Counted from the first letter of the stretch, positions 8,604 to 39,072 are shown. The stretch is 55,682 nucleotides of DNA from Alphaproteobacteria bacterium (GCA_030042035.1 JASIAN010000067.1:1-55682); one strand, 5' to 3'. The notes: generated from the letters alone by a model not told the origin. Numbers and translations: made by a program.

Positions 8604-9837
8604 GAGCGCCGATCATGTCGGTAATGAACCGCCAGGCCGCGGCGATGCCGAAGCCGCGGCGATGAAAGCGGACCTCGGCGAGCCGGCCGATATTGCAGAA
8701 ACCGGCGGCGTTCTTCGCCGCCGTCGGCGGCAGCGCGACCTCGACGCTGATCTGACCGCCGCCCGGATCGGGGATGTGCGCGGCAAGGAGACGCGTGTCA
8801 TCACGCGCCGCCGAGCCGCGTACGTGTCCCACAATGCCCTGCAACCAATGGTTGGTTCCATAAAGGCGGACCATCACCGGATCGCCGGTCCTCATCGTCC
8901 CGAAGTCCCGTTCGGGTACCTGCACCACGACAAAACGCCTCTGGCAATCGGCGAGGTCCATGATCGGTTGGCCTTCCGTGACGGCGGAACCCGGGCTTGC
9001 CAGCACAGACCAGACGACATAGCCGGCGGGAAGCGCCAGCGCGTAGCTGGAAAGCTGCGCGATGCGTTGGCGCTCCGCCGCACTCTCCGCCGCAAGCTGC
9101 GCGAGGCGCGAGCGGGCATCGAGCAAGGTTGCCTGCAGCTCCTGGCGACGCAGCAGCAGCCGATCGCGTTCCTGCGCCGTATAGGGCGTGTCGTTGAACC
9201 CATCCTCGAGGAAGATCCCGACGCGCGCCGCCGCGGCTTCCGCCTTGAGCCGCCCGATCTGGGCGATGATCGCCCGGCAGCGCGCCAACGTGCTGGCATG
9301 CGTGGCAGCGATATTGTCGAGGCGCTGCGGTGAGATCACGCCGGCCTTGGCGAGCAGGTCGGCGCGCGCCAGCGCCTTTGCCTGTTGCTGTTCGTCGGCA
9401 TCGCAGCCGGCCAGATTGGCGGTGGTCTCATCACTCTCGTATGCAAGCCGGGCCAGCACCGCTTCGCGGTAGCGTGCGGTCTCCTCTGCGAGCCTGCGGT
9501 CGGCGGCCTTCACCTGCGCGAGCTGCGCCTCAACCAAGGCGGCTTGCGCCTCTGCCGTTGCGTATTGCTGCTGCAGCCGCACGAGGGTGCGGCGGTCCGG
9601 CGGCAACGCCTCGATCAGCCTCGTCTTCGTCGTCCCGTCCATCAGCGCACCCTTGGCGGGCAGATCATGGGCAACTTCGCCGCTGATCGGCGCGGTGACC
9701 CGCAGGAGTTCGGCATTGACGAAGGCGGAGCTGGCGACGTGATAGGCAAGATAAGGGAAGAATGCCCAGAGCGCTGTTGCCAGCAATACAGAGGCGAGTG
9801 ACAGCCGCACAAGACGGCTGCGAACGAACTTTTCCAT
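8560..9837 (-). CDS. HlyD-family membrane-fusion (periplasmic adaptor) protein
   Basis: N-terminal TM helix (LVRLSLASVLLATALWAFF), barrel-sandwich start VNAELLRVTAPISGEV, a long Ala/Gln/Arg-rich coiled coil, and a C-terminal beta domain. The 3' end overlaps the GT2 start by 44 nt. Confidence 0.85.
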   Translation of the reverse strand: MEKFVRSRLVRLSLASVLLATALWAFFPYLAYHVASSAFVNAELLRVTAPISGEVAHDLPAKGALMDGTTKTRLIEALPPDRRTLVRLQQQYATAEAQAALVEAQLAQVKAADRRLAEETARYREAVLARLAYESDETTANLAGCDADEQQQAKALARADLLAKAGVISPQRLDNIAATHASTLARCRAIIAQIGRLKAEAAAARVGIFLEDGFNDTPYTAQERDRLLLRRQELQATLLDARSRLAQLAAESAAERQRIAQLSSYALALPAGYVVWSVLASPGSAVTEGQPIMDLADCQRRFVVVQVPERDFGTMRTGDPVMVRLYGTNHWLQGIVGHVRGSAARDDTRLLAAHIPDPGGGQISVEVALPPTAAKNAAGFCNIGRLAEVRFHRRGFGIAAAWRFITDMIGAHETRVAGGSSARAG

Positions 9838-11780: not shown

Positions 11781-12479
11781 TCAGAAATTCTCGACCCAGG
11801 GGCGCAGTTCGATTTCCCAGGCCCAGGCGCTGCGGTGCTGACGGTGCAGGTGGAGATAGGTGTCGGCGATCGCGTCGGGCTCGAGCAGACCGTCGGGGCC
11901 GCGTTCGTTGGCGCGCGGGTCGCCGGCGCGACGGATGCCGCCGTCGATGACGATATGGCCGACATGGATATTCTGCGGCTGCAGTTCGCGCGCGAGAGAC
12001 TGCGCGAGGCCGCGCAGCGCGAACTTGCCCATCGCAAAGGATGACGAGCGCGGGTATCCCTTGACGCTGGCGCTGGCGCCGGTGAACAGGATCGTGCCGT
12101 GGCCCTGCCTTGCCATGCGCATCGCGGCTTGGCGTGCGACGAGAAAGCCGCCGAACGCGGTGACGCGGATCGCCGCCTCGACCGCGGCGGGGTCGAGTTC
12201 GATGATCGGTCCGCGCGCCCGGCCGCTGGCATTGTAGACGACGAGATCGAGGCGGCTGCCGCCCGCGTCGATCGCGGCGAACAGCCGCTCGACGTCCTCG
12301 GCTTGCGTCGCATCGCAGGCCACGGTCTGGGCGCCGGTCTCGCGCGCCAGCGCGGCGAGCTTGCCCACGTCGCGCGCCGCCAGCACCACGGCCATGGCGT
12401 CCTTGGCGCAGCGGCGGGCGAGCGCCGCGCTGAGCCCCGATCCGGCTCCGACAATGACGGCACGCTCCTGGTCTGCCAT
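11781..12479 (-). CDS. Short-chain dehydrogenase/reductase (SDR) family oxidoreductase, atypical catalytic motif
   Basis: Rossmann motif VIVGAGSGLSAALA and NASG. The expected YxxxK reads FAMGK. The start is at MADQERAV (complement of 12477-12479). Confidence 0.8.
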   Translation of the reverse strand: MADQERAVIVGAGSGLSAALARRCAKDAMAVVLAARDVGKLAALARETGAQTVACDATQAEDVERLFAAIDAGGSRLDLVVYNASGRARGPIIELDPAAVEAAIRVTAFGGFLVARQAAMRMARQGHGTILFTGASASVKGYPRSSSFAMGKFALRGLAQSLARELQPQNIHVGHIVIDGGIRRAGDPRANERGPDGLLEPDAIADTYLHLHRQHRSAWAWEIELRPWVENF

Positions 12480-12970
12480 GGCCCATCCCCTTCGATGTCG
12501 CCGGCCGCTGGTCGCCGGCCGAATGCCCTTATCGCGCAAAAGCGACGAGAAACGCCAGCCTCTACCGGCGACGCACCGCCGGCGAGCGGCGCTGCCGGCC
12601 GCGCAGCATCGATCCCGGCGGGACCGTTGAAATCGCCAATATTTGTGAAGATTCCGTAGCACCGAAAATTCAAAGAATTCGTCGTTTTCATTATTTTCGG
12701 CAATAGATAAAAGCCGCCGTGCTTATCGCCCCTCCCTGATCTCGGTCACCCGCACCATCCACAAAAATTCAACTCTCGATACAGTTGACAGATGCATCGG
12801 TGACTGGCTAGGCTCAATACGGAACTTCCCCCTGTCCCAACCCGGGCAGATCATCCATCACAGACCCGGGACGGCACCTGCCTCAGGTCTTCGTCATCAG
12901 AAACGGCGCCCGCTGTCGGGCGGCCGCGACAGAACGCGTGTTTCCCGAAACTACATGGAGACGCCGGCGG

Positions 12971-13699
12971 ATGAGGATGCGAACGACAATCGGCCTGTCG
13001 CTTGCGCTGGCGCTCGTGCCGGCAGTTGCCTCGGCCAAGCAGGGCCATGCCGCCCATCACCACCCTACCCCGAGCGTCAAGGCCCGGCACGTGCAGGCAG
13101 GCAGCGACGTGGGGCGGATCCGGGCAAACCGGCGCCGCCCGGCGCTTGCGCAGGCTGCGCCGCGCCGCCGGTCGCACGACGTGGCGCATCACGCGATTGC
13201 CCGCCGCGAGCATCATGCCGCCGGTCACGTCATTGCCGGCCGCGCAGTACGGCATTGGCACCACCGGCGCGATTTCGGCAGGCTGGCGCCCGAGGACCGC
13301 TATGTCGGACCGCTGCGGGCGATCGGGCCGCGCGAGGTCGGCAAGGCCGCATGGTACGGCCCCAGGTTTCTCGGCGGGCGCACGGCGAGCGGCGAACGGC
13401 TCGACTCGATCCATGCAACCGCGGCCCATCGCTGGCTGCCGCTGCATTCGCTGGTCCGCATCACAAACCTGGAAAACGGCCGCACGACGGTGGCAGAGAT
13501 CAACGACCGCGGACCCGTCAGCCATTCGCTGCTGATCGATCTGTCGCCACGCACGGCGCGGGAACTCGACATAATCCACCGGGGCGTCGCACCCGTCGTC
13601 GTCGTGCCGGTCGTGGCAATCCGAAAGGCGGCCGCGGTAGCGTTCCCCGCTCACCGGCATTCCGGCGTCGCCCGCCGCAACGCACAGCCGCGCAGATAG
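12971..13699 (+). CDS. RlpA-like septal-ring lytic transglycosylase family protein (DPBB domain) with a His/Arg-rich N-terminal region
   Basis: Signal peptide MRMRTTIGLSLALALVPAVASA. DPBB core GKAAWYGPRFLGGRTASGERLDSIHATAAHRWLPLHSLVRITNLENGRTTVAEINDRGP. The start among M1/M12/M14 is uncertain. Confidence 0.8.
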   Translation: MRMRTTIGLSLALALVPAVASAKQGHAAHHHPTPSVKARHVQAGSDVGRIRANRRRPALAQAAPRRRSHDVAHHAIARREHHAAGHVIAGRAVRHWHHRRDFGRLAPEDRYVGPLRAIGPREVGKAAWYGPRFLGGRTASGERLDSIHATAAHRWLPLHSLVRITNLENGRTTVAEINDRGPVSHSLLIDLSPRTARELDIIHRGVAPVVVVPVVAIRKAAAVAFPAHRHSGVARRNAQPRR

Positions 13700-13900
13700 A
13701 ACCGGCAGTTTAAAAACCTGTCGCGTTTTTGCAACTGTTGCCTCGTAGTCACAATTGATCTGAAAATCCGGGTGATCGAGCCGCACTCGATTGACTCCGA
13801 ATTGGTGCTCGACTGTATTCTTCGAGACAATCTCTGTGCGGATTGTGACGATCCGAACGTGGCAAGCTGCTGACGGCAACGGAGCAGGACGGGCCCGGCT

Positions 13901-14413
13901 GTGAGCGGCACAATTTCGGGGCGGCCCGCTGGCGGCGGGTTGGTTGGGGGGACAGTGTCTGACACGGCAAATGTGATAGCCTTTCCGCTGTCGGCTCGGG
14001 CGCGGCGAACGGCGGACGCGAAGCCCCGCTCGCCGCGCGGCGAATACGAGTTCACCGAGGCGGAACTCGCCGCTTTGTGCCGCTGGTTCTCGGCGATGAA
14101 ATATGCCTTCCCGGGCACCGAAGGGGTCATGATCGTCAGCCATCAGGACCGCTATTCGGCGGTCGGGCTTTATAACCCGAGGGGCGGCGCGCCGAACTGT
14201 CTGATCGCCAAGCACGAGGTGGGCGGATCGGCCCGCTTCTTCTGGTCCACCGAGGGTGATCCGCCGCGGCCGATCGGCGATCTGGCGGAGATCACTGACG
14301 CGCATATCCGGGCCATCCATCCGCCGCGCAACGAAAAGGGCTGGCTCGATCCGATCGGCTGGATGGGGGTCTATGCCGCCCGCATGATTGCAACCGCCGT
14401 ACAAGTCGTTTGA
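13901..14413 (+). CDS. Hypothetical protein (GTG start)
   Basis: 170-codon ORF with coding-like composition, upstream of the exporter/GT pair on the same strand. I recognise no motif. Confidence 0.45.
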   Translation: MSGTISGRPAGGGLVGGTVSDTANVIAFPLSARARRTADAKPRSPRGEYEFTEAELAALCRWFSAMKYAFPGTEGVMIVSHQDRYSAVGLYNPRGGAPNCLIAKHEVGGSARFFWSTEGDPPRPIGDLAEITDAHIRAIHPPRNEKGWLDPIGWMGVYAARMIATAVQVV

Positions 14414-14607
14414 CGGCGGGTATCCGAACCGGCGCGTTGATGCGCGCTGGACGAGCGAGGTCGCGGACGGCTGTAGAGTGGGGGAGTTCGGCGGGCGAGC
14501 CGGGAACGGCGGGCGACGGCCCAGTGGGTGTGCCCGCATGACGCGCCGGGCGCATCGAGCGGCATCGTGCGGGTCATGTCGAGTGGCTCAGCCGGAGCCG
14601 GAGTGCG

Positions 14608-15765
14608 ATGAGGGCAGCCGCAGTGGTGGGATTGCTGGCCGGTCTACTTGCCGGCTGCTCGGCTCTGCCGACCGCCGGTCCGACCGCCAGCCAGATCGTG
14701 CGGCAGGGGGACGAGAACAGCCGGCCGCGCTTCGACCTCGTCGATATCAACAGCAACGTCGTTGCCGCGCTGCGCGCTACACGGGTCGAGAGTTTCGCCG
14801 CCCGCTTTAAGAAATACGGCAAGCCGCCGCCGCAGCGGATTGCGGTCGGCGACAGCATCGTCGTCTCGATCTGGGAAGCTGCCGGCGGCGGGCTGTTCAG
14901 CGAGGGCGGCGCCAACGGCGACGTCACGTCGGGATCGCGCAACGTCACGATCCCGCAACAGGTGGTCGGTCAGGACGGCGGGATCAGCGTGCCGTTTGCC
15001 GGGCGCATCCCCGTTGCCGGTGTGCTGCCGCTCGAAGCGCAGCGGGCGATCGAGCGGCGCCTCGCCAAAAAGGCAATTGAGCCGCAGGTCATCGTCACGG
15101 TCACGAAGAGCGTCGCCAACAGCGTCACAGTGACGGGCGAGGTCGTGCACGGCGCGCGCCTCCCGCTGTCGGTCAGGGGCGATCGGCTGCTCGACGTCAT
15201 CGCCGAGGCGGGCGGCGCGTCAGGGCGGATTTACGAGACGTTTGTGCGGCTGTCGCGCGGCGGCGTCACCGCGACAATCGCGCTCGAGACCCTGGTTTCG
15301 CACCCCGCCGAGAACATCTATGCGCAACCCGGCGACGTCCTGACGCTGGTCCGCGTGCCGCGCTCGTTCACCGTCCTCGGCGCGACCGGGGTCAACGCCG
15401 ACATCCCGTTCCCTTCCGAACGGCCGACCCTCATCGAGGCGCTGGCCAAGGCGGGCGGGCTGCAGGACCAGCGCTCCGACCCGTCGGGCGTCTTTCTGTT
15501 CCGCTATGAGCCGCCGCGTGTCGTGCGCGCGTTGGGGGAACCGCCGCTCGACACCGGGCCGGACCACAGCACACCCGTCGTCTATCGGCTCGATATGCGC
15601 GACGCCAAATCCTATTTCCTCGCACAGCGGTTTCCGATCCGCGACAAGGACATCATCTACGTCGCCAACGCCGATCTCGATGAATTGCAGAAATTCTTTA
15701 CCCTGCTCAATACCTTGACCGGCCCCGTTCTGACCGGGGTCGTGATCAAGAATACGGTGCCGTAG
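14608..15765 (+). CDS. Polysaccharide export outer-membrane lipoprotein (Wza/KpsD/RkpU-like: Poly_export + SLBB)
   Basis: Lipobox LLAGC at residues 14-18. Poly_export-like IAVGDSIVVSIWE...VVGQDGGISVPFAGRIPVAGVLPLEAQRAIERRL, and an SLBB-like GDVLTLVRVPRSFTVLG. Confidence 0.88.
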   Translation: MRAAAVVGLLAGLLAGCSALPTAGPTASQIVRQGDENSRPRFDLVDINSNVVAALRATRVESFAARFKKYGKPPPQRIAVGDSIVVSIWEAAGGGLFSEGGANGDVTSGSRNVTIPQQVVGQDGGISVPFAGRIPVAGVLPLEAQRAIERRLAKKAIEPQVIVTVTKSVANSVTVTGEVVHGARLPLSVRGDRLLDVIAEAGGASGRIYETFVRLSRGGVTATIALETLVSHPAENIYAQPGDVLTLVRVPRSFTVLGATGVNADIPFPSERPTLIEALAKAGGLQDQRSDPSGVFLFRYEPPRVVRALGEPPLDTGPDHSTPVVYRLDMRDAKSYFLAQRFPIRDKDIIYVANADLDELQKFFTLLNTLTGPVLTGVVIKNTVP

Positions 15766-15788: not shown

Positions 15789-17009
15789 ATGCTCATGCTC
15801 GACGTCTCACGTCTGTTGTCGCGCGCCGGACGCGCGACGCCGACCGGCATCGACCGGGTCGAGATGGCCTATGCGCGGCGCCTGATCGCGAACGGCGCCG
15901 CGGCCCGCTTTGCTGCGGTCAAGCCGACCGGCGGGCTCGGCCTCCTGCCGGATCGCGCCGCCCGAGAGTTCGTCGAGGCGATTGCGGCGCGCTGGCGCGG
16001 CGATGGCGCGTCGCCGCAGCCGACGCGACCGGTCTCGCGCATCGCCCGCCAACTGCGCCTCCGGCTATTGGGATCGCGTGAGCTGGCGCCGACCCGGCGG
16101 CGCACGAATGGCGGCGCGGTATACCTCCTCGTGTCGCATCACCACTTGGAGAATTGCGCGCTCCTCGCGCGGCTCAGACAGCGGGCCGGGGCAAGGTTCA
16201 TCTGTCTGATCCACGATCTGATCCCCGTCCAATTCCCCGAATACGCCAGGCCGGGACAGGCGGAGAAACACCTGCGACGCATCCGCAACGCCGCCCAATT
16301 CGCCGACGCGCTGATCGTCAATTCGGCGGTGACACGCGACGCGCTGCAATGCCAGATCGATCGCGCCGGACGTGCGCCGCCGGTTCTCGTCGCGCCGTTC
16401 GGCACCGATCTGCCGACCGCAGCGCCTCATGCCGCGCCGCCGCTGCCCCGCCCCTATTTCGTCTGCGTCGGCACGATCGAGGCGCGCAAGAACCACCTGC
16501 TGCTGCTCAACGTGTGGCGCCAACTCGCCGCCGAACTCGGAGAGCACACGCCGATCCTCGTGCTAATCGGCCGGCGCGGCTGGGAAACCGAGAACGTCGT
16601 CGACATGCTCGAGCGCTGCCCGGCGCTGCGCCCTTGCGTCATCGAGCACGGCGCGCTGTCCGACGCCGCGATGGTGCCGCTGCTCGCCGGGGCGCGCGCG
16701 TTGCTGCTGCCGTCCTTCGCCGAGGGGTTCGGCTTTCCGGTCATCGAGGCGCTGGCGCTGGGCGTCCCGGTGCTGTGCAGCGATGTGCCGGCCTTGCGGG
16801 AGACCGGCGGCGGCATCCCCGAGTTTTTCGACCCGCTTGACGGGCCGGGATGGCGATCGGCGATCCTCGATTATGCGGCGTCGCAGTCGCCGCGGCGTGC
16901 CGCCCAGCTGGCCCGCCTCAACGGCTGGCGGCCGCCGCGCTGGCGGGATCATTTCGCAATGGTCGAGCGGTTCATCGGCGAGGTCGCCGCCGCCCCGCCG
17001 GTCCCGTAG
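15789..17009 (+). CDS. GT4-family (GT-B) glycosyltransferase
   Basis: YFVCVGTIEARKNHLLLLNVW...LLLPSFAEGFGFPVIEALALGVPVLCSDVPALRE is the EX7E-type retaining GT4 C-terminal domain. The gene begins 23 nt after the exporter gene. Confidence 0.88.
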   Translation: MLMLDVSRLLSRAGRATPTGIDRVEMAYARRLIANGAAARFAAVKPTGGLGLLPDRAAREFVEAIAARWRGDGASPQPTRPVSRIARQLRLRLLGSRELAPTRRRTNGGAVYLLVSHHHLENCALLARLRQRAGARFICLIHDLIPVQFPEYARPGQAEKHLRRIRNAAQFADALIVNSAVTRDALQCQIDRAGRAPPVLVAPFGTDLPTAAPHAAPPLPRPYFVCVGTIEARKNHLLLLNVWRQLAAELGEHTPILVLIGRRGWETENVVDMLERCPALRPCVIEHGALSDAAMVPLLAGARALLLPSFAEGFGFPVIEALALGVPVLCSDVPALRETGGGIPEFFDPLDGPGWRSAILDYAASQSPRRAAQLARLNGWRPPRWRDHFAMVERFIGEVAAAPPVP

Positions 17010-17015
17010 CAAGGG

Positions 17016-18416
17016 TCACCCCGGGCGCGCCGACAGGCCCGCGAGATGGCGTGCCACGGCGGCGAGATCGGCCGGTTCGGCCGCCACCGCCCGCGCCTCT
17101 TCCACCACAATTTCGACCGCCTTGCGCACCTGCTCTTCGCTGTGCTCGGCGGTCAGGAAGAAGCGCAGCCGGGCGGCGCGCTCGGCGACCGCCGGGTAGA
17201 GGATCGGCTGGACGTTGATGCCGCGGCGGAACAACGCCTCTGCGAGCCTGCCGGCGGCGATCGAGCTGCCGGTGATGACCGGCACGATCGCCGCGCCGAT
17301 CGAACCGCCGACCTCGAGCCCCTTCGCGCGCGCCAGCTCCAGAAACAGGCGGGCGCGCTGGTTGAGGCGGCGGACGCGCTCGGGCTCGCGTTCGAGGATA
17401 TCGATCGCGGCCAGCGCTGCCGCCGCCGCCGCTGGCGCCATGCCGACCGAAAATACAAACCCTGGCGCCGTGCGCTTCAGGTAGGCGATGAGGTCCTTGC
17501 GGCCGGCGATATAGCCGCCGCAGGACACGAGGCTTTTGCTCAACGTGCCCATCCAGATATCGACCTCGTTCGGGTCGATCCCGGCGTGGTCGGCCGAGCC
17601 GAAACCGCGCGGGCCCAAGACGCCCAGCGCGTGTGCGTCGTCCACCATGAGCCACGCGCGATGGCGCCGCGCGACGGCGACGAAGGCGGCGAGATCGGGC
17701 ACGTCGCCGTCCATGCTGTAATGGCCCTCGATGACGAGGAGCGCATTGGCGTGGCGCGCGCGCGCCTCGGCGAGGGCGCGATCCGCCGCCGCGGCGTCGA
17801 GGTGGCGAAACGGCACGCGCCGCGCCCCCGACAGCAGCGCCCCCTGCGCGATGCTGTTGTGGATCAGCGCGTCATGCACGATCAGGTCATGGCGCCCCAA
17901 CAGATGCCCGATCACGGTTACGTTTGTCGCGTGGCCGCCGACCAGCGTAATGCTGTCCTCGGCGCCGTGCAGCCGGGCCAGCGCGCACTCCAGGTCGCGA
18001 TGGATCGGCCGTTCGCCCGACACTGGCCGACTGGCGGAAACCGACGTGCCGTAGCGGTCGATTGCCGCCTTGGCGGCCGCCGTGATGCGCGGATCGCCGT
18101 TCAGCCCGAGATAATTGTAGGACGCGAAGTTGAGATAGAAGCGGCCGTCGATCGGCGTTTCAGCGGCGGCGACGCCATCGTGCACCCGGAAGAACGGATC
18201 GGCGATGCCGAGATAATCCGCCGCCTCCTCGATCATATGGACGTCGCGCCAGCCGTCCAATTGGCGAACGTCGAGGCGGCCGGTCTCGAGGCTGGCCTCG
18301 ACGCGCGGTCGACGCGGCACGCCGGCCGCCAGCCGCCCGGCCGCCGGCGCCAATTTCTCAATGAGCCGCGCCTTTGCGTGCGCCGACAGGCCAAACAGGT
18401 CGCGACCGGCCGCCAT
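17016..18416 (-). CDS. PLP-dependent alpha-oxoamine synthase family enzyme (AONS/serine-palmitoyltransferase/RkpG-like)
   Basis: NFASYNYLGLNG, GGHATN, MVDDAHALG and GTLSKSL (PLP lysine) are the AOS-family motifs. The start is taken at MAAGRDLF (complement of 18414-18416), 4 nt after the PKS stop. Confidence 0.9.
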   Translation of the reverse strand: MAAGRDLFGLSAHAKARLIEKLAPAAGRLAAGVPRRPRVEASLETGRLDVRQLDGWRDVHMIEEAADYLGIADPFFRVHDGVAAAETPIDGRFYLNFASYNYLGLNGDPRITAAAKAAIDRYGTSVSASRPVSGERPIHRDLECALARLHGAEDSITLVGGHATNVTVIGHLLGRHDLIVHDALIHNSIAQGALLSGARRVPFRHLDAAAADRALAEARARHANALLVIEGHYSMDGDVPDLAAFVAVARRHRAWLMVDDAHALGVLGPRGFGSADHAGIDPNEVDIWMGTLSKSLVSCGGYIAGRKDLIAYLKRTAPGFVFSVGMAPAAAAAALAAIDILEREPERVRRLNQRARLFLELARAKGLEVGGSIGAAIVPVITGSSIAAGRLAEALFRRGINVQPILYPAVAERAARLRFFLTAEHSEEQVRKAVEIVVEEARAVAAEPADLAAVARHLAGLSARPG

Positions 18417-18420
18417 CGGC

Positions 18421-21400
18421 TTACCCGGCAGCCGCCGAATCGACGGGCAGCGGTTCCGGCCGTGCGACCGCATTCGCCAGCCCGTCGCGCCGATCGGCAT
18501 CGACTATCTCGTAGCGCGCCGCCAGATTGACGACGGCGCTTGCCGGCTGCGACGCCGCGAGGGCGGTGGCGAGGCGGCTGGCAATCGAGACGACGCTCGT
18601 GCCCTCGGCCAGCGACATAAGCGGCAGATTGATGCCCAGGCGGGTTTCGAGCGCCAGGCGCAACTCGACCGCCATCAGCGAATCCATGCCGACCTCCGAG
18701 AGCGGCCGCAGCGGATCGAGCGAGCCGGCCGGCAGGCGCAGAATGGCCGCGGCTTCGTCGGCGACGGCGATTGTGAGCAGCGCCGCCGCCTCGTCCGGGC
18801 CGAGCCCGGCGAGCCGTTCGAGCAACTCGTCGCCGCCCTGGGCGGCGGGACCGTCGGCGAACAGCTCGGCAAACAGCGGTGCGGCGAGGATCGGCAAATG
18901 GCGGCGCGGTTCCTGCCAACTGGTCTCGGCCAAGGCGGCGACGGGGAGGCCGCTGCCGAGCAGCGCCGGCAGCGCTGCCAGCATTTGCGCCGCCGGCTGC
19001 GGCCTGGCGCCGAGCCGGCGCGCCAACGCCTCACGCGCCGCCGGCCGTTCGGCGAGGTATCCGGTATCGGCGACCGGCCCCCAGGCGACCGCGAGCGCCG
19101 GCAGGCCTTCGGCACGCCGGCGGCGGGCCAGCGCCTCCAGCGCCAGATTGGCCGCGACATATGCCCCCTGCGCCGGCGCGCCGAGTAATGTCGTCGCCGA
19201 CGAGAACAACAGAAACAGCTCGATCGGGTCGTCGCGGGTCAGGCGGTCGAGAACCAGGGCGCCGCCGAGCTTGGGGCGCAGCACCGTCGCGATCGCCGCA
19301 TCGTCAAGTTCGGCGGCGACCCCATCGACGATCGCCGCGGCGGCATGGACGATGCCGCGAAGCGGTGGCTGCGCCGCCCGGATTTCAGCCAGAACGGCGG
19401 CGAGCGAGCCCTGATCGGCAACATCGGCCGCATAGAGCCGCACATCGTCGGCCCCGAGCGCGCCCAATTCGGCAGCGCGCTCGGCGGCTCCCGGCGTTGC
19501 CGCACCGCGCCGGCCGACCAGCGCAATCGCGCCGGCACCCTGGCGTGCGAGCCATTCCGCTGCAGCAAAGCCGAAGCCGGAGATGCCGCCGGTAACCAGA
19601 TACGTGCCGTCCCGCCGCAGCGCGACATGCGGCGTGTCGCGCAGCCGCACCGCGGCATTGCCGTGCGGCAGCAGGACCAGCTTGCCGATGTGCCCCGACG
19701 CCTGCATCAGGCGGAACGCGTCGCCCGCCGCGGCGAAACTGAAGCGGCGATGCGCCAAGGGCCGGATCGCGCCATCGCCGAGCGCGGCGGCAATCTCGCC
19801 CAGCAGCGCTTCGGCGAGGTCCGGCCGCTCGATCGGCAGCCGGTCGATATCGATTGCGAAATACGAAATATTCTGCCGCAGCGGACGCAGATGAATGCGC
19901 CGATTGAGATAGAAGTCGCGTTTGCCGAGTTCGAGAAAGCGGCCGAACGGCTTCAACACGCCAAGGCTGTCCTCCATTGCTTCGCCGCTCAGCGAATTGA
20001 GCACGACATCGACGCCGCGGCCGCCCGTTATCGCGCGCACCGCATTGCCGACGCCCGGATCGCGCGACCCGAGCACGTGGTCGGCGCCGGCCAATCGCAG
20101 GAAATCGCGTTTCACGTCCGAGCCGGCCGTCGCGATGACGGTGGCGCTGCGATATTTTGCGTATTGAATGGCCGCGAGACCGACGCCGCCGGCAGCGGCA
20201 TGGATCAGCACCGTTTCACCAGGCGCCAGCCTGGCGAGCGTGCCGAGCGCATAGCTCGCCGTGACAAACGCCACCGGGAGTGTCGCGGCCGCGGCAAAGC
20301 TCGTCCCGGGCGGCAGGCGCATGACCGCGCGCGCCGCGGTCGTCACTCGGCTGGCCAGCGAGGCCGGGGCAAACCCGGCGACCCGGTCGCCGACATTGAG
20401 ATGCGCGACGCCCGGACCGATCGCGCTGACGATGCCGGCGCATTCGAGACCGTAGCTCGGGCCGGTGAAGCCATCGATCAGCGCCTCTTCCGGCACCAAT
20501 CCCATCGCCCACATGATGTCGCGGAAATTGAGTCCGGCCGCCGCGACGTCGATCGCGATCTCGCCGGGTCCCGGCGGCCGCGGCGCCGCCCGCCGCCAGC
20601 CGAGCGTGTCGATGCCGCCCTGCGGCGCGCCGGCGAGGCCGATCGGATCGCCGGCGGCGGCCCACAGCGGCGGCAGTCCGCGGCGCAGCCGCAGGACATG
20701 CCGGCCGGCGCTGGTCCAGACAATCTCGGTTTCGCCATCGGCAGCCGTCAGTTCGGCCGCGAGCGCGGCAGCGCGTTCATCATCGGTCAGCGTCGGAGAC
20801 AGATCGATGAGGCGCAGCTGCAACCGCGGGGTCTCGTTAACGAGCACACGCGCGATGCCCCACGCGGCGGCACCGCTTGGCCCGCGATCGCCGGCGTCGG
20901 CAGGCTGTTGCGCGCCGGTCGTGACGAGCCATAGCGGCAGCTGCCGCCGCGCCGCGTCGCTCGCGATGCGGATGAGCTGCATCGTCAGCCGCGCGGTCGC
21001 CGCAACGGCGCCGCTGTCGCCGGTCGCATCGGCGATCATGAGGATCATGTCACCGTCATCGCCCGCGGCGCCATCGTCGTCGGTCTCTGCTGCCGCGGCA
21101 AGGGCCGCCACCTCGGTAACACGCACGGCGTGGCCATGTCGCGACAAGCGCTCGGCAAGCGCGCTGCTGCCGTCCCCGATCGCCGCGATCAGATTTATCC
21201 TACGCGACCGCGGCTCCGGCCGCGCGATTTCGCCGGCGATCGGCGCCCTGCCCCAAAACAGTGCGCACGGCCACGGACCCGCCGCCAGCGCGAGAGTTCC
21301 GGCGGTGACAAATCCGCCGTCCGCGAGTTCGTCGCGCCACGCCGCACCCGCTCGCAACGGCGACGGGGCATCGGCGTCGCCGCTGTCCGGCCACCAGCCG

Positions 21401-24400
21401 GCCTGTCGACCGAACACCAGGTCCCATAACGGGTTGGGCTCGGGTTCCGCGGCGATCAACAGGCCCCCCGGCGCAAGCTGCTGGCGCAATGCCGAGAGCG
21501 CCGCGCCGTCGATGCCCATTCGCGCGCAGGTGTTGAGCGCGACGATCACGTCAAACCGGTCGGCGCCGAGCCGCGCCGCCTCCGCCGCATCGGGGCTCGT
21601 CGCGCGGTAGGTGAGCGCCGCGCCGGACGCCGCCAGGCGATCGAGAAACTGCCGGGGCGGGCTGGCTTGCGCGCCGATCTCGAGCAGCCGCAACGGGCGG
21701 CCCTTCGGCCACCGCGCGGCGATCTCGGTAAGCAGCCGGCTCACCAGGTCGATCCCCGCGGCGGCGGCCGGCGAGCCGGACAGCAGGTGGTCGATCGTTG
21801 CGGCGATCGCCTTTTCCGGCGGCCGCGGGCCTTCCGCCAGGAAACGCGCCAGATCGGCTGCCGTTGCTGCGACCAGCGCGAGTTCGGCAACCAGTTCCGG
21901 CGTTTCGGCCAGCAGTAGCCGCCAGACATCGGCCATCTCGGGCAGGTCGTTATTCGCGGCGATGCGCCACACCGGCCCCGCTGAGCGCGCAGCCCCGAAC
22001 CGCTCCAAGAGCCGCAGCAGACCCCCGAACAGCGCCGCGGCATCGGGCGCGATGTCGCCGGAAGCGATGAGCGCTGCGACCGTGAACGGCGTCTCGCGCC
22101 CGACCGCGCTCGGCATCGCCGCAAGCGCTGCCGACGCGATCAGCGCGTCGCAGAGCAGCCGCCGTTCCGCGCCGTCTTCGGCCTTATCGGGCGCGTCGGA
22201 TAGGAGCCGCGTCGCGATCAGGGCGATGTCGTCGAAGACCGCGGGCGGCGCCGTCTCGCCGAGCGGGGCCGGTACGAGCTCGGTGCGCAGCACAGCATCC
22301 TCGGGTGCCACCCGGTGGGACAGCTCGACCCGCCGGAACCAGCAATCGGTCAGTTCGCCGATCGCGGCGCCCTTCTCGTCGAACAGCACGATATCGGCCG
22401 ACACCGAGCGGATGCCGCGGCGCGTCAGGCGCAGCCAAGCGCGGCACACGCTGCGTCCGAACGGCGCCATAATGCGCACCCGCCCGAAGCGCCACGGCAA
22501 GAGGCTGACGCCGGCCGCGTCGCCATCTCCGTCGGCCGTCAGCGCCAGCAGCCCCTGCAATGCCCCATCGAGCAGCGCCGGATGAACGAGATAGTCGTCG
22601 CCGGCGGCGCCGACGACCGACGCATCGAGGTCCACCAACACCGTGCCGTCTGCCAGCCGATCCACCCGGCGCACGGTGCGAAATCGCGGGCCGTAATCGA
22701 GCCCGAACCGGCCGGCGAGCCGGTAGAGCGTTGCGCCGTCGATCGCCGATGCGGCCGCTGCGGGATCGTCGAGGCCGGGCGGTGGCGGCAGATCGCCGGC
22801 CGCGACCAGCCGCGCGACGGCATGCAACGTCAACGGCTCTTCGGTCAGCCGCAACCGGCTGAGGAGCTCAAAATCGCCGTCCTCGGCCGAGACGACTGAG
22901 CGAACCTCACGCGGCCGCCCGTTGTCGAACGGCAGCGGGCGGCGCAGTTCGACATCGGCGACCTCGACGGCAGCGGCGTCCGGCCGCCGCAGCCGCGCCG
23001 CCGCCAGCGCCATTTCGAGCACCGCGGCGGCCGGCAGCACCGCGACGCCTTCGACCGCGTGATCGGCGAGCCACGGCACCTGTTGCGGATCGAGATAGTT
23101 GAGCCACGATGCGACCGGCCCCGGCTGGCGAAATCCCAGCAGCGGATGCGCAAACGGCGGATCGGCGACCTGCGTGTCTTCGACCGTCCGGTCAAACCAG
23201 AAACGTTCCTTGTGCCACGGGTAGAGCGGCAGGCCCGTCGGATCGCCGGGCCCGTCGAACCGCTCGCTGCCGGCAATCGTGTGGCCGGCGACATGGCAGC
23301 GCGCGACGATCGCCGGAAACGGATCGTCGCCGCTTTCGTTGCGCGTCAGCGTCGCCAGCACCCGCCCCTCGCCGTCCGCCGCCCGCAGCGCATCCTTTAC
23401 GTAGGCTTGCAGCACCGGGCTCGGACCGATTTCGAGAAAGATCCGGCTGCCGGACGCCGCCAGCGCCGCCATCCCATCCGCGAAGCGCACTGGGCTGCGG
23501 ATGTTGCGCCACCAGTGACGGGCGTCGAGATCGCCGGCGGAGACCTTCCGGCCGGTGACCGTCGAAATCAGCAGCGTCTCGGGCACACCCGAAACGAGGC
23601 CGGCGAGATCATCCAGCAGGCCCGCGCGGATCGGCTCCATCGCCGCCGAGTGAAAGGCGAAATCGAGATCGAGCGGGCGGCAGGCGATGCCGCGACGGCG
23701 CGCCTCGGCGGCGAGCCGATCGATCGCCTCGCACGGCCCCGACGCCGTGACCGATTGCGCCGCGTTGATCGCGCCGATCTCGAGCGCACTGCCAAGCTCG
23801 GCGAAGAGTTCCTCGGCGGCGGCCGCGCCGAGCGCCAGCGCCGCCATGCGCCCCGTGCCGCGCGTGCGCTCCTGCTGCCGGCTGCGCGCGACGACGACCC
23901 GCACCGCCGCGGCGAGGCTCAACGCGCCGGCGGCCCACGCGGCTGCAATTTCGCCGACGCTGTGCCCGATATGGCCGGCGGCCGCGATCCCGAGGCGACG
24001 CAGCACGGCGACGACGCCGACTTGGGTTGCGAACAGCAGCGGCTGGGCGACATCGGCGCGCACGAGCCGCTCCGGCTCGGTACCGCGTGCGATCGCGTCG
24101 GCGGCCGACCAGCCGAGCAGCGGCTGCAACTCGGCGTCGACTTCCGCCATCGCTTCGCGAAAGGCTGAGCTGGTCCGATACGCGTTGCGCCCCATGCCCA
24201 GCCATTGCGCGCCGTTGCCGGAAAACACAAAGGCGAGTTTGCCGTCGCGCAGGGCGGTCCCGGTGACGAGCGACAGGTGATCGGCGCCGCCGGCGAAATC
24301 GCCGAGCGCCGCGGCCATCTTCGCTACGTCGGCGCACGTCGCGACGAGGCGCTCGGCATGATGATCGCGTCGCCGCGCCGCGGCGCGAACCATCGCCGGG

Positions 24401-25803
24401 ATGCTGTCGGTCGATGCGGCGGCGAGCGCCACCTGCCAGCGCTGCGCCAGCTCGCGCAGCGACGCCTCGGTTCTCGCCGACAGCAGCAACGGCGGCAGCG
24501 CGGCGTCGTGCGGCACCGGTGGCGCGCGGTGCGGCGGCGCAGCCAGGATCGCGTGCCCGTTGGCGCCGCCGAACCCGAACGAATTGACGCCGGCGCAGCG
24601 CCCGCTCTCAATCGTTTCGCACTCTCGCACCAGCCGCAGATTGAGCCGTTCAAACGGAATGGCGGGGTTGGGCTCGTCGCCATAGAGCGTCGGCGGCACG
24701 ACACCCCGCTCCAGCGCCAGCGCCGCTTTGATCAGGCCGGCCATGCCCGAGGCCGGTTCCAGATGGCCGATATTGGTTTTGACCGAACCGATCGGCAGCG
24801 GCATCGTGCGCGCCCGCCCCAGCGCCGCGCCGACCGCAGCCGCCTCGACCGGATCGCCGGCGGGCGTTCCGGTGCCGTGCATCTCGAAAAACGCCAACGC
24901 GTCTGGCGCAACCTTCGCGCCCTCGCAGACCTGGCGGATCAGCGCCGCCTGCGCCGCCTCGCTCGGCAGCGACAGGCCGATCGTGCGGCCATCCGAGTTG
25001 ACGCCGGTGCCGAGAATGACGGCGCGGATCGGGTCGCCGGCGGCGAGCGCCTCAGCCAGCGGCTTTAACACAACAACGCCGCCGCCCTCACCGCGGACAT
25101 AGCCGTCGGCGCGGGCGTCAAACGCGAAACAGCGGCCGCGGCGGGACAGCATCGCGGCGCGGCAGAAGCCGATAAATGGATAGGGCGCCAACAAAAGGTT
25201 GATGCCGCCGACGAAGGCGCCGGCGATCTGCTCGCTGCGGATCGCTTCGCACGCATGATGCAGCGCCACCAGAGAGGACGAGCAGGCGGTATCGATCGCA
25301 AGGCTCGGGCCACGCAGATCAAACACATGCGAGATACGGTTGGCGAGGATGCTAAGCGTCCCGCCGGTCATGAAATACGAGTCGCCGCTCGCCGGATCGC
25401 CGAGCCTGAGGTCGCGGTAGTCGGTCGTCGATGCGCCGATATAGACGCCGAATTCGGTGCCGGCGAGGCTGGCGGCGGGGATGCCGGCATCCTCGGCGGC
25501 GTGCCACGCCAGTTCCAGCAGGATCCGCTGCTGCGGGTCCATTTGCGCCGTTTCGCGCGGCGAGATGCCGAAGAACGCCGGCTCGAACAGATCGATGCCG
25601 TCGATGAGGCCGGCCGACCACGTATAGCTGCGGGCCGGCTCGCCAGGCGAGGGATGATAAAAAAATCGCGTCGACCAGCGTCGCTCGTCGACCTCGGAGA
25701 CCGCATCGGTTGCCGTCGTCAACAGGTCCCAAAAGGCGGCCAGATCGGGCGCGCCCGGGAAGCGGCAGGAAGCGCCGACGATCGCAATCGGGTCGTCTGT
25801 CAT
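18421..25803 (-). CDS. Type I polyketide synthase, single fully reducing module (KS-AT-DH-pseudoMT-pseudoKR-ER-KR-ACP, no TE); RkpA/MAS-like
   Basis: 2460 aa. KS: DTACSSS (C174), EMHGTGT, NIGHLE. AT: GHSVG (S614), FAFHS. DH: HPLLG, LADHAVEGVAVLP (H915), DYGPRF, LDGALQ. MT-like: LEIGAQAS. ER: LIHAAAGGVGLAA. KR: YLVTGGISGFG, GAYVAAN. ACP: GMDSLM (S2375). The 55-aa C-terminal tail has no GxSxG thioesterase motif. Confidence 0.95.
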   Translation of the reverse strand: MTDDPIAIVGASCRFPGAPDLAAFWDLLTTATDAVSEVDERRWSTRFFYHPSPGEPARSYTWSAGLIDGIDLFEPAFFGISPRETAQMDPQQRILLELAWHAAEDAGIPAASLAGTEFGVYIGASTTDYRDLRLGDPASGDSYFMTGGTLSILANRISHVFDLRGPSLAIDTACSSSLVALHHACEAIRSEQIAGAFVGGINLLLAPYPFIGFCRAAMLSRRGRCFAFDARADGYVRGEGGGVVVLKPLAEALAAGDPIRAVILGTGVNSDGRTIGLSLPSEAAQAALIRQVCEGAKVAPDALAFFEMHGTGTPAGDPVEAAAVGAALGRARTMPLPIGSVKTNIGHLEPASGMAGLIKAALALERGVVPPTLYGDEPNPAIPFERLNLRLVRECETIESGRCAGVNSFGFGGANGHAILAAPPHRAPPVPHDAALPPLLLSARTEASLRELAQRWQVALAAASTDSIPAMVRAAARRRDHHAERLVATCADVAKMAAALGDFAGGADHLSLVTGTALRDGKLAFVFSGNGAQWLGMGRNAYRTSSAFREAMAEVDAELQPLLGWSAADAIARGTEPERLVRADVAQPLLFATQVGVVAVLRRLGIAAAGHIGHSVGEIAAAWAAGALSLAAAVRVVVARSRQQERTRGTGRMAALALGAAAAEELFAELGSALEIGAINAAQSVTASGPCEAIDRLAAEARRRGIACRPLDLDFAFHSAAMEPIRAGLLDDLAGLVSGVPETLLISTVTGRKVSAGDLDARHWWRNIRSPVRFADGMAALAASGSRIFLEIGPSPVLQAYVKDALRAADGEGRVLATLTRNESGDDPFPAIVARCHVAGHTIAGSERFDGPGDPTGLPLYPWHKERFWFDRTVEDTQVADPPFAHPLLGFRQPGPVASWLNYLDPQQVPWLADHAVEGVAVLPAAAVLEMALAAARLRRPDAAAVEVADVELRRPLPFDNGRPREVRSVVSAEDGDFELLSRLRLTEEPLTLHAVARLVAAGDLPPPPGLDDPAAAASAIDGATLYRLAGRFGLDYGPRFRTVRRVDRLADGTVLVDLDASVVGAAGDDYLVHPALLDGALQGLLALTADGDGDAAGVSLLPWRFGRVRIMAPFGRSVCRAWLRLTRRGIRSVSADIVLFDEKGAAIGELTDCWFRRVELSHRVAPEDAVLRTELVPAPLGETAPPAVFDDIALIATRLLSDAPDKAEDGAERRLLCDALIASAALAAMPSAVGRETPFTVAALIASGDIAPDAAALFGGLLRLLERFGAARSAGPVWRIAANNDLPEMADVWRLLLAETPELVAELALVAATAADLARFLAEGPRPPEKAIAATIDHLLSGSPAAAAGIDLVSRLLTEIAARWPKGRPLRLLEIGAQASPPRQFLDRLAASGAALTYRATSPDAAEAARLGADRFDVIVALNTCARMGIDGAALSALRQQLAPGGLLIAAEPEPNPLWDLVFGRQAGWWPDSGDADAPSPLRAGAAWRDELADGGFVTAGTLALAAGPWPCALFWGRAPIAGEIARPEPRSRRINLIAAIGDGSSALAERLSRHGHAVRVTEVAALAAAAETDDDGAAGDDGDMILMIADATGDSGAVAATARLTMQLIRIASDAARRQLPLWLVTTGAQQPADAGDRGPSGAAAWGIARVLVNETPRLQLRLIDLSPTLTDDERAAALAAELTAADGETEIVWTSAGRHVLRLRRGLPPLWAAAGDPIGLAGAPQGGIDTLGWRRAAPRPPGPGEIAIDVAAAGLNFRDIMWAMGLVPEEALIDGFTGPSYGLECAGIVSAIGPGVAHLNVGDRVAGFAPASLASRVTTAARAVMRLPPGTSFAAAATLPVAFVTASYALGTLARLAPGETVLIHAAAGGVGLAAIQYAKYRSATVIATAGSDVKRDFLRLAGADHVLGSRDPGVGNAVRAITGGRGVDVVLNSLSGEAMEDSLGVLKPFGRFLELGKRDFYLNRRIHLRPLRQNISYFAIDIDRLPIERPDLAEALLGEIAAALGDGAIRPLAHRRFSFAAAGDAFRLMQASGHIGKLVLLPHGNAAVRLRDTPHVALRRDGTYLVTGGISGFGFAAAEWLARQGAGAIALVGRRGAATPGAAERAAELGALGADDVRLYAADVADQGSLAAVLAEIRAAQPPLRGIVHAAAAIVDGVAAELDDAAIATVLRPKLGGALVLDRLTRDDPIELFLLFSSATTLLGAPAQGAYVAANLALEALARRRRAEGLPALAVAWGPVADTGYLAERPAAREALARRLGARPQPAAQMLAALPALLGSGLPVAALAETSWQEPRRHLPILAAPLFAELFADGPAAQGGDELLERLAGLGPDEAAALLTIAVADEAAAILRLPAGSLDPLRPLSEVGMDSLMAVELRLALETRLGINLPLMSLAEGTSVVSIASRLATALAASQPASAVVNLAARYEIVDADRRDGLANAVARPEPLPVDSAAAG

Positions 25804-26038: not shown

Positions 26039-27238
26039 CTACACGCGCTCCAGCACTGTCGCAATGCCCTGGCCGACGCCGACGCACATTGCGACAAGCG
26101 CATAGCGCCCGCCGGTGCGCTGCAATTGCCGCGCCGCGGTCAGCGCGATGCGCGGCCCCGACGCGCCCAGCGGATGGCCGATCGCGATCGCGCCGCCGTT
26201 CGGGTTGACCCGGCTGTCGTCGAACGGCAGGTCGAGGCCGCGCAGACAAGCGAGGACTTGCGCCGCGAACGCCTCGTTGATCTCGATCACGTCGATGTCC
26301 TTGAGCGTGAGGCCGGCGCGCTCCAACGCCTTCTTCGCTGCCGGCACCGGGCCGAAGCCCATGATGCGCGGCGCGACCCCGGCGACGGCCGACGACAGGA
26401 TCTTGGCGATCGGTTTGGCGCCGGCGGCATCGCCCGCCTTGCGGCTGGCGACGATCATCGCGACCGCGCCGTCGTTGATGCCCGAGGCGTTGCCGGCGGT
26501 CGTCACGCCGTCCTTGAACAATGGCCGCAATCTGGCGAGCGCCTCCATATTGGTCCCGGGCCGCGGGTGCTCGTCCTCGCCGACCGTGACTGGCCCGGCG
26601 CGGCCGCCCGGCACCTCGACCGCGATGATCTCGCCGGCGTAGAAGCCGTCGGCCTTGGCGGCGGCGTATTTCTTTTGCGAGCCTTCGGCGAACACGTCGG
26701 CCAACTCGCGCGTGATCTGGTATTCGCGGGCGAGATTATCGGCAGTCTCCGGCATCGTGTCGGCGCCGTAGCGGCCCTCGACCTTCGGGTTCGGGAAACG
26801 CGCGCCGATCGTCGAATCGAAGACCCGGGCGTCGCGACTGAACGCCGCCTCGGCCTTGCCCATCACAAACGGCGCACGGCTCATGCTCTCGACACCGCCG
26901 GCGACGAACACGTCGCCTTCGCCGCAGGTGATCGCCTGCGCCGCCGTCGCGATCGCGTTGAGGCCGGAGCCGCAATTGCGCTGCAAGACGGCGCCCGGAA
27001 TTTCAATCGGCAGCCCGGCGACGAGCGCCGCGTGGCGCGCAACGCAACGGCTGTCCTCGCCTGCCTGATTGGCGCAGCCGACGACGACATCCTCGATCTT
27101 GTCGGGCGCAAAGCCGCTGTCCTTGACGACGCGGGCGATGACCGAGGCGAGCATATCGTCCGGCCGCAATCTGGCGAGGGCGCCGGCATGGCGGCCGAAG
27201 GGGCTCCTGAGACCGGTGTACAGATAGGCGTCGAGCAT
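26039..27238 (-). CDS. Acetyl-CoA C-acyltransferase (thiolase, PcaF/PaaJ/FadA-like)
   Basis: QRNCGSGLNAI (active Cys), NEAFAAQV, NPNGGAIAIGHPLGASG and CVGVGQG are the canonical thiolase motifs. Confidence 0.93.
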   Translation of the reverse strand: MLDAYLYTGLRSPFGRHAGALARLRPDDMLASVIARVVKDSGFAPDKIEDVVVGCANQAGEDSRCVARHAALVAGLPIEIPGAVLQRNCGSGLNAIATAAQAITCGEGDVFVAGGVESMSRAPFVMGKAEAAFSRDARVFDSTIGARFPNPKVEGRYGADTMPETADNLAREYQITRELADVFAEGSQKKYAAAKADGFYAGEIIAVEVPGGRAGPVTVGEDEHPRPGTNMEALARLRPLFKDGVTTAGNASGINDGAVAMIVASRKAGDAAGAKPIAKILSSAVAGVAPRIMGFGPVPAAKKALERAGLTLKDIDVIEINEAFAAQVLACLRGLDLPFDDSRVNPNGGAIAIGHPLGASGPRIALTAARQLQRTGGRYALVAMCVGVGQGIATVLERV

Positions 27239-34342: not shown

Positions 34343-34722
34343 TGACGGCTGCGCCGGCTCGCCTTTCGCTTGGACACGCCTGGCAGATGCTGTTGCGAGA
34401 GGTTCGACGTTGCACGCCGCAATCCATCCGCGGCTATCGAACTGAGGCGGGACTGCGCCACCCGGTCGGCAGCGTCACCGCCGCGGCGATCTGGCGCTGC
34501 GGAACGCCGGGCGAGGCCCGATTCGCGGCCGCAAAGATCGTCGTCGGCTCCGGCTGGAAAAAAGCCGCATGACGGCGGCAGCCGACGCGCCGATCGACGT
34601 TATCGGCACCGGCTGCTACCTGCCGGAATTGTGGAGCGAGCTGCGCCGCGGCCGACATGATCGCCTATGACGCGCAGCCGATCGTCAAGGCCGGCCGCAA
34701 ATACCTGCGGCGCGGCAAGCGG
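34343..34722 (+). pseudogene. Decayed duplicate of the 3' end of the nicotinate-PRTase-like gene
   Basis: It aligns by eye with 31773-32196 (for example GCTCGCCTTTCGCTTGGACACGCC, CCGCGGCTATCGAAC, GTCACCGCCGCGGCGATCTGGCGC, CGACGCGCCGATCGACGT, CTACCTGCCGGAATT, GTCAAGGCCGGCCGC). It carries several indels that are not multiples of three. Confidence 0.8.
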
Positions 34723-36414: not shown

Positions 36415-36495
36415 CGGGCTGGGTCCGCGGCGGTTGAACTGCCAGTCTGTGCCCGCCATTTAGCGACGTAATTAAATTCAGAACAGGGGTGTGTC

Positions 36496-39063: not shown

Positions 39064-39072
39064 TTTTCAGTT

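Follow-up and report, generated by a model that had tools for sequence, protein, structure and literature searches.

The best-described relatives of the locus reported here are the sga genes of Pseudomonas fluorescens MYb115, in which a type I polyketide synthase (PKS) that works iteratively, SgaA, and an alpha-oxoamine synthase (AOS), SgaB, are both needed for the formation of C24, C26, and C28 sphinganines; SgaAB-dependent species at +154 Da were assigned as phosphoglycerol-sphingolipids (PMC12134224). Purified SgaB formed an external aldimine with serine, converted L-serine and C16 to C20 acyl-CoAs to 3-ketosphinganines, and was nearly inactive with alanine or glycine, and SgaC, a nearby short-chain dehydrogenase/reductase (SDR), was proposed as the keto-reductase (PMC12134224). 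Here we describe a homologous PKS-AOS pair at positions 17016 to 25803 of a 55,682-nucleotide stretch of DNA from an alphaproteobacterium (GCA_030042035.1, JASIAN010000067.1:1-55682). We call the whole stretch the window; its closest relatives are metagenome-assembled genomes (MAGs) labeled Stellaceae or unclassified Alphaproteobacteria. We consider it probable that this pair is a sphingoid-base synthase of the SgaAB/RkpAG type that makes a very-long-chain 3-ketosphinganine.

Like P. fluorescens MYb115, the window has a monomodular, iterative-type PKS directly before an AOS, and the chemistry predicted for the two pairs is the same. Their surroundings differ, however. The window lacks SgaC, which is a KDSR-like SDR, and an LtaS-family gene, having instead a GT4 glycosyltransferase and an outer-membrane polysaccharide export (OPX) protein, and it also lacks the 3-deoxy-D-manno-octulosonate (Kdo)/capsule genes that flank the sga-like cluster of a related Pseudomonas plasmid (L087). 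The published survey counted 6101 homologous two-gene clusters, with Burkholderia first (3452), followed by Bordetella, Methylobacterium, Sinorhizobium, and Pseudomonas; Roseomonas, Roseibium, and Caballeronia are among the other genera counted, and Stellaceae are absent from the genus list (PMC12134224).

WcbR and RkpA belong to a recognized PKS clade (PMC3908369). WcbR is described as a capsule-locus fatty acid synthase (FAS), and knocking out wcbR lowers capsular polysaccharide I (CPS-I) (PMC3735121). Likened by its genes alone, the window resembles wcbR/wcbT of the Burkholderia pseudomallei CPS-I locus and the rkp-1 region of Sinorhizobium meliloti and S. fredii (rkpU, rkpA, and rkpGHIJ). 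Homologs of RkpA, RkpG, and RkpU lie within 12 kb in the window, but RkpH, RkpI (a sulfatase-family membrane protein), and RkpJ (KpsS-like) are missing, and the OPX gene is convergent and downstream, whereas that of rkp-1 is divergent and upstream. With RkpH, RkpI, RkpJ, and the kps transport genes absent and a GT4 gene present instead, the window, judged by its gene content, is not an rkp-1 capsule region.

The canonical Spt pathway of Caulobacter, Sphingomonas, and Bacteroides, with its discrete acyl carrier protein (ACP), bCerS, and CerR, shares with the window a pyridoxal phosphate (PLP)-dependent enzyme of the AOS fold and the predicted conversion of serine and an acyl thioester to 3-ketosphinganine; a dedicated megasynthase, and not FAS or acyl-CoA, would supply the acyl donor in the window. 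No ceramide synthase or ceramide reductase is found among the window annotations, although no search aimed at bCerS or CerR was made. The logic of a highly reducing PKS followed by AOS release is also that of fungal Fum1/Fum8/Fum13, sphingofungin, and myriocin biosynthesis, to which we liken the window by pathway logic and not by sequence, and which then uses a KDSR-type reductase. These fungal sphinganine-analog pathways are eukaryotic and involve alanine or other amino acids and methylated chains. The fungal parallel to SgaAB has been pointed out before (PMC12134224).

The PKS-AOS pair and its homologs

The PKS is a single 2460-residue polypeptide in which Pfam identifies ketosynthase (KS), acyltransferase (AT), dehydratase (DH), enoylreductase (ER), ketoreductase (KR), and ACP domains (Table 1). 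E values reach the order of 1e-84, so chance is no concern for these domain calls, and every active-site residue named in a preliminary description of the window was found at the position given there. No thioesterase (TE), reductase (R), or condensation (C) domain was detected by Pfam anywhere in the protein. The preliminary description was thus right that a release domain is absent after the ACP, but the ACP fold ends near residue 2410, leaving a tail of about 50 residues rather than the 55 it had given.

Between the DH and ER domains lies a 570-residue spacer with a subthreshold match to Methyltransf_23 (E = 1.3e-3; 18.9 bits against a cutoff of 27) and a degenerate GxGxG motif (EIGAQAS). 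Both features are consistent with a pseudo-methyltransferase of the FAS/mycocerosic acid synthase (MAS) type, as had been proposed. Under established AT motif rules, GHSVG and FAFH form a malonyl-type signature, from which we infer that the AT is malonyl specific. Because it carries these motifs, the AT does not look like the methylmalonyl AT of MAS/Pks2-type enzymes, and the PKS scores 1000 bits with the Pks2 equivalog hidden Markov model (HMM; mycocerosic-acid-synthase/Pks2-type), below its cutoff of 2400.

The AOS gene is tightly coupled to the PKS gene. Four nucleotides separate the PKS stop codon (TAA, 18423-18421) from the AOS ATG at 18416, and the AOS has the NYLGL, DDAH, and TLSKS motifs, including the lysine, all of which agrees with the preliminary description. 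A longer AOS open reading frame (ORF) of 494 residues, starting at 18500, is an unlikely alternative start, since it would overlap the PKS.

We compared the pair with its described homologs. The window AOS is 52% identical to P. fluorescens SgaB (PfSgaB) over 443 residues, its full length (E = 8e-135), and RkpG, the Caballeronia AOS, and the Pseudomonas plasmid AOS are 52%, 56%, and 77% identical to PfSgaB, respectively; these four identities are approximate, the query having been read by optical character recognition from supplementary Figure S6 of the Sga paper (PMC12134224). The rkpA/rkpG correspondence noted in the preliminary description held up: the PKS is 37% identical to S. meliloti RkpA and colinear with it over more than 1500 residues, through the pseudo-methyltransferase region; identities are 47% for the AOS with RkpG and 35% for the window OPX with RkpU (E = 9e-67). 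The PKS is also colinear with that of the sga-like cluster on the Pseudomonas plasmid (38% identity over 2481 residues), and the N terminus of the SDR encoded on that plasmid agrees with PfSgaC as printed in Figure S12 (PMC12134224). The substrate-loop motif IDRYGTSVSASR is the same in the window AOS and PfSgaB, and a YGTS(V/A)SASR loop is common to the entire AOS clade. In a crude neighbor-joining tree with a single canonical serine palmitoyltransferase (SPT), that of S. multivorum, as the outgroup, the window AOS, SgaB, and RkpG fell in one clade, with the SPT well outside it. By sequence, then, SgaAB, RkpAG, and (by genus counts) WcbRT are one family of which the window pair is a member.

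Two related loci encode the AOS fused to an ACP. On plasmid p3 of Planktothrix agardhii (L084:2548-10146), KS, AT, DH, ER, KR, ACP, and AOS domains make up a single polypeptide of 2532 residues, the AOS domain of which shares 54% identity with the window AOS, and in Rhodopirellula baltica (L082:7781-11221), a 1146-residue protein combines a fatty acyl-AMP ligase (FAAL), an ACP, and an AOS that is 58% identical to that of the window. To our knowledge, neither fusion has a characterized product. The architecture of these fusions shows a clade of AOS enzymes apparently suited to acyl chains bound to carrier proteins, and it supports the idea that the acyl chain would pass directly from ACP to AOS at the window locus. 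The Planktothrix gene is flanked by genes for a GT39-family protein and other glycosyltransferases.

Table 1. Features of the window at and around the PKS-AOS pair
Feature	Position	Strand	Size or residues	Basis or remarks
Type I PKS, single-module, fully reducing; SgaA/RkpA/WcbR homolog	18421-25803	minus	2460 aa	Pfam, motifs, homology
KS domain	24541-25794	minus	aa 4-421	PF00109 + PF02801, E 3e-84; C174 (DTACSSS), H309 (HGTGT), H347 (NIGH)
AT domain	23281-24231	minus	aa 525-841	PF00698, E 1e-67; GHSVG with Ser615, FAFHS at 715
DH domain	22324-23148	minus	aa 886-1160	PF21089 + PF14765 (PS-DH, PKS_DH_N); H915 in HxxxGxxxxP, D1079xxxQ
DH-ER interdomain, degenerate pseudo-methyltransferase + structural pseudo-KR	20584-22293	minus	aa 1171-1740	Methyltransf_23 below cutoff; colinear with RkpA
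ER domain	19672-20571	minus	aa 1745-2044	PF08240, PF00107, PF13602 (matches include ADH_N, ADH_zinc_N); HAAAGGVG
KR domain, B-type	19066-19608	minus	aa 2066-2246	PF08659, E 2e-51; TGGISGFG, LDD, YVAAN
ACP	18574-18765	minus	aa 2347-2410	PF00550, E 3e-11; GMDSL, Ser2375
Post-ACP tail, then stop codon	18424-18573	minus	~50 aa	
AOS; SgaB/RkpG/WcbT homolog	17016-18416	minus	466 aa	PF00155, homology; NYLGL (101), DDAH (259), TLSKS (291, Lys294)
GT4 glycosyltransferase, convergent on AOS	15789-17009	plus	406 aa	Pfam GT4; candidate tailoring enzyme
OPX lipoprotein, RkpU-like	14608-15765	plus		Poly_export + SLBB domains; lipobox LLAGC
Conserved hypothetical	~13955-14413	plus	~152 aa	Syntenic with PKS-AOS in Stellaceae
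RlpA-like	12938-13699	plus		
SDR	11781-12662	minus		
3-Oxoadipyl-CoA thiolase	26039-27238	minus		

Related loci and the GT4 gene

We scanned a genome collection, taking one genome per species, and recovered 80 related loci. In 74 of them, the PKS C terminus and the AOS start were within 400 nt of each other, and among the 65 loci in which this could be measured, 49 had their nearest AOS start codon at -4 to +6 nt relative to the PKS stop. The accessory genes were less constant: the GT4 gene was present in 38 of the 80 loci, the 152-residue ORF in 41, and the OPX gene, restricted to the closest relatives of the window, in 17. Many Stellaceae carry a bare PKS-AOS pair amid ergothioneine, cytochrome oxidase, and peptidase genes.

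Most of the non-Stellaceae loci examined place the pair in a capsule-type setting. The S. meliloti locus (L002) has OPX, PKS, AOS, SDR, the sulfatase-family RkpI, the KpsS-like RkpJ, and KpsF; Roseibium has PKS-AOS-SDR with three Capsule_synth genes and OPX; and Microbulbifer has PKS-AOS-SDR-OPX followed by an ATP-binding cassette (ABC) gene, along with capsular biosynthesis genes. The order is SDR-LtaS-PKS-LpxC-like-AOS-OPX-ABC-polysaccharide copolymerase (PCP) in Caballeronia, sulfatase-PKS-AOS-ABC-PCP in Aliidongia, and PKS-AOS-PhyH-KpsC-GNAT-LtaS-SDR-KpsS-KpsC-...-KpsF-KdsB-KdsA on the Pseudomonas plasmid. The last of these, plasmid pL21564-1 of Pseudomonas sp. TMW 2.1634 (6329-29083 in locus coordinates), thus holds an sga-like cluster inside a Kdo-type capsule locus, with two KpsC-like genes, a KpsS-like gene, an LtaS-family gene, KpsF, KdsB, KdsA, and a SgaC-like SDR.

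At the rkpI position of S. meliloti, between rkpH and rkpJ (L002:16223-17782), we found a gene for a 520-residue protein with a Sulfatase domain (PF00884); it is missing from the PLSDB gene table, which is itself described as incomplete. The protein is 28 to 30% identical to the lipoteichoic acid (LTA)-synthase-family proteins encoded beside PKS-AOS in Caballeronia and Pseudomonas, which points to a possible role as a phosphoglycerol or phosphoethanolamine transferase. An LtaS-family enzyme accompanies PKS-AOS in Sinorhizobium, Pseudomonas, Caballeronia, and Aliidongia, and if one enzyme had to be named as the likely source of the phosphoglycerol head group, the LtaS-family/RkpI enzyme would be the obvious choice. 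Among the sampled Stellaceae loci, that of MAG SMAG_U13723 (L033, from about 12526 onward) is the only one in which the AOS is closely followed by an RkpH-like SDR (45% identity), so the reductase is not uniformly absent from this family.

The GT4 gene adjoins PKS-AOS in three gene orders. In Stellaceae, it is convergent with the pair; in Roseomonas, the order is GT4-PKS-AOS, and the GT4 is 49% identical to that of the window over its full length; and in an Acetobacteraceae MAG, the order is PKS-AOS-GT4 (35% identity). That the linkage survives such changes of order suggests a functional tie. Homolog searches with the GT4 returned close Stellaceae relatives only, with Roseomonas and the Acetobacteraceae MAG the places where the link was seen beyond them. 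In the window, just 6 nt separate the GT4 stop codon from that of the AOS gene (17007-17018), which leaves no space for an intergenic terminator, and a promoter and terminator scan, uninformative as a whole, found no terminator between them. The RkpU-like OPX suggests a remaining tie to surface-polysaccharide export. We propose, tentatively and at somewhat less than even confidence, that in the window lineage the GT4 glycosylates the sphingoid base and that the product is tied to the RkpU-like outer-membrane exporter.

Weighing the predicted pathway

In the pathway that we favor, the KS-AT-DH-ER-KR-ACP module would iterate with malonyl extenders, and the acyl chain built on its ACP would be saturated and probably very long, as suggested by the malonyl-type motifs of the AT, the B-type KR, and the intact DH and ER. 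The translationally coupled PLP enzyme would then condense the chain with L-serine in a decarboxylative Claisen reaction and so free it as 3-ketosphinganine; the AOS is taken to be the release enzyme because the PKS has no thioesterase or reductase domain. An iterative PKS with AOS off-loading to a sphingoid-like base was also the preliminary proposal, and the homologous SgaAB system lends it support (PMC12134224). The accompanying remark that the lipid product had never been defined is outdated, since C24 to C28 sphinganines and phosphoglycerol-sphingolipids were reported in 2025 (PMC12134224). We infer the chain length and every downstream step at the window locus.

Several points weigh against this pathway. 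For the window organism, the case is built from sequence and from homolog data. The enzyme assays of PfSgaB used acyl-CoA surrogates, not acyl-ACP (PMC12134224), the identities to PfSgaB are approximate for the reason given above, and at 52% identity the serine specificity of the window AOS is no more than likely. Searches by tblastn and blastp with SgaC-like SDR queries found no SgaC-type or KDSR-type reductase in the window. In roughly half of the Stellaceae loci, PKS-AOS has no GT4 or OPX gene close by, so the linkage of these genes may reflect lineage synteny rather than function.

The same chemistry could serve the role suggested by rkp-1 and wcb, with the sphingoid lipid acting as the membrane anchor or primer of a capsule and the partner proteins (a reductase, a phosphoglycerol transferase, KpsS/C, an ABC transporter, and a PCP) encoded elsewhere in the genome. 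The RkpU-like OPX gene lies two genes from the AOS, the pair sits inside the capsule-type loci of the six non-Stellaceae groups described above, and the wcbR knockout phenotype fits an involvement in capsule formation (PMC3735121). Against this, tblastn of the entire 55.7-kb window found no homologs of KpsS/C/M/T/E, KpsF, RkpH, RkpI, or RkpJ, Pfam annotation found no Capsule_synth or Sulfatase domain among the window genes examined, OPX accompanies the pair in just 17 of the 80 loci, and the pair stands amid housekeeping genes in many Stellaceae. On balance, we regard an anchor role in the window organism as quite possible but less probable.

The PKS might instead work as an elongase, adding one or a few C2 units to a preformed fatty acyl starter from primary metabolism, with AOS release to follow. 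Long-chain acyl-CoA starters are elongated in this way by MAS-type PKSs, whose domains come in the same order. The window PKS has no loading module, its KS beginning at residue 4, and the C24 to C28 products of Pseudomonas are compatible with extended C16 to C18 starters; SgaA, however, is described as iterative (PMC12134224), and elongation seems to us possible but rather doubtful. Sequence does not separate the de novo and elongase modes, and the lipid class is the same either way.

The amino acid substrate is a further point at which the favored pathway could fail. With alanine, glycine, or the like in place of serine, the AOS would yield a 1-deoxy-sphingoid-like or simple alpha-aminoketone lipid. 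NCBIfam equivalogs do not settle the amino acid, since the scores for bioF (330 bits), SPT (301 bits), and 2-amino-3-ketobutyrate CoA ligase (KBL; 296 bits) are all below cutoff. Each of the three SPT equivalogs fell far short (301 against 640, 253 against 500, and 202 against 670), so that the window AOS, which also lies in a separate clade in the tree, is set apart from canonical SPT. The PDB neighbors are likewise nondiscriminating, being a mix of SPT, ThAOS, and KBL with a Sphingobacterium SPT nearest (3a2b; E = 1e-63), and serine is assigned only by homology to PfSgaB. The YGTSVSASR loop is nevertheless kept throughout the clade, and we think use of another amino acid very improbable. If the AOS were an ordinary BioF or KBL unrelated to the PKS, with a trans-acting thioesterase releasing a free fatty acid, one might cite the fact that bioF (TIGR00858) is its best single NCBIfam match. 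That match nonetheless stays below the cutoff of 426 bits, Pfam annotation revealed neither a thioesterase nor biotin (bio) genes in the window, the AOS is paired with the PKS almost without exception across phyla, and fused homologs are known. The 152-residue ORF, the sole unannotated neighbor, gives no hotdog or alpha/beta-hydrolase signal. This scenario is effectively refuted.

Neighboring genes and wider significance

The local gene map was drawn from GC3-based frame analysis and Pfam, the window being GC rich (65 to 72%). We considered several neighbors as missing components of the pathway. The nearest SDR (11781-12662) is unlikely to be the keto-reductase, having only generic similarity (27 to 29% identity) to RkpH/SgaC-type SDRs. 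A 562-residue ORF at 12851-14539 on the minus strand, considered as an RkpI, is a GC-rich antisense artifact, rich in Arg and Pro and with no Pfam domain; the real genes there, those for the RlpA-like protein and the 152-residue ORF, are on the plus strand. The 3-oxoadipyl-CoA thiolase, a conceivable starter supplier, is kept only in the closest relative (L004), and we rejected it as a component on that ground. The 152-residue ORF, considered as a hidden thioesterase or lipid-binding protein, has no Pfam match. Its AlphaFold2 model, with a pLDDT of 60, carries low confidence, and Foldseek returned nothing below an E value of 0.1, with only faint SRPBCC/START-like matches. All 641 of its homologs come from Stellaceae-like bacteria, and none is annotated; whether it belongs to the PKS-AOS system is uncertain.

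The remaining window genes are housekeeping or unrelated, among them lexA, a degP-like gene, ccmAB, a hydantoinase gene, major facilitator superfamily (MFS) transporter genes, genes for enolase-superfamily paralogs, and mreBCD-pbp2-rodA. The minus strand at 6438-9837 encodes an HlyD-like membrane-fusion protein (8560-9837) and, after it, a GT2 that resembles cellulose synthase and has PilZ as its C-terminal domain (6438-8603); the two look like a cyclic di-GMP-controlled glucan synthase pair with no relation to PKS-AOS. On the plus strand at 34657-41091, a tandem pair of MFS transporters, another of mandelate-racemase/enolase-superfamily paralogs, and an orotidine monophosphate-decarboxylase-family protein look like a sugar-acid catabolic operon.

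PKS-dependent synthesis of a sphingoid lipid class is already known, having been characterized in 2025 in a clear homolog (PMC12134224). Nor is the window, which had been suggested as a tractable entry to these lipids, the most tractable one, since the locus is more complete in Pseudomonas, Sinorhizobium, and Burkholderia, which are open to genetic work. What is new beyond the literature that we found is the GT4-coupled, reductase-less context and the joining of the Sga sphingolipids with the "lipid carrier" of rkp-1 and wcb. The Sga paper does not mention capsule, rkp, or wcb (PMC12134224), and in the capsule lipid anchor literature that we searched we found no link from a PKS to a KpsS acceptor.

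These two points are linked parts of a wider reading that we offer as a speculative possibility. In one part, Stellaceae, Roseomonas, and some Acetobacteraceae would have a rewired Sga-type pair that has lost its keto-reductase, phosphoglycerol-transferase, and Kdo-transferase partners and is tied to a dedicated GT4; if so, the lipid made by these bacteria would be a glycosylated very-long-chain (keto)sphingoid of a kind not described before, passed in the window lineage to an RkpU-like outer-membrane exporter. In the other, the "specific lipid carrier/anchor" long sought for the rkp-1 and wcb capsules may be the SgaAB phosphoglycerol-sphinganines. The product of the PKS, AOS, SDR, and LtaS-like RkpI would then be a mimic of lyso-phosphatidylglycerol, primed with Kdo by KpsS-like enzymes.

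With the pair described here, the predicted range of PKS-dependent sphingolipid synthesis comes to include Stellaceae, an abundant family represented in our data almost exclusively by soil MAGs. This noncanonical route was recognized only in 2025, and a genome search for canonical SPT would overlook sphingolipid potential of this kind. The comparison also ties three literatures, those on the Sga sphingolipids, on the "lipid carrier" of rhizobial rkp-1, and on wcbR/T of Burkholderia, to one gene family, and it suggests a concrete identity for the lipid end of many capsules of the ABC-transporter type outside Enterobacteria.

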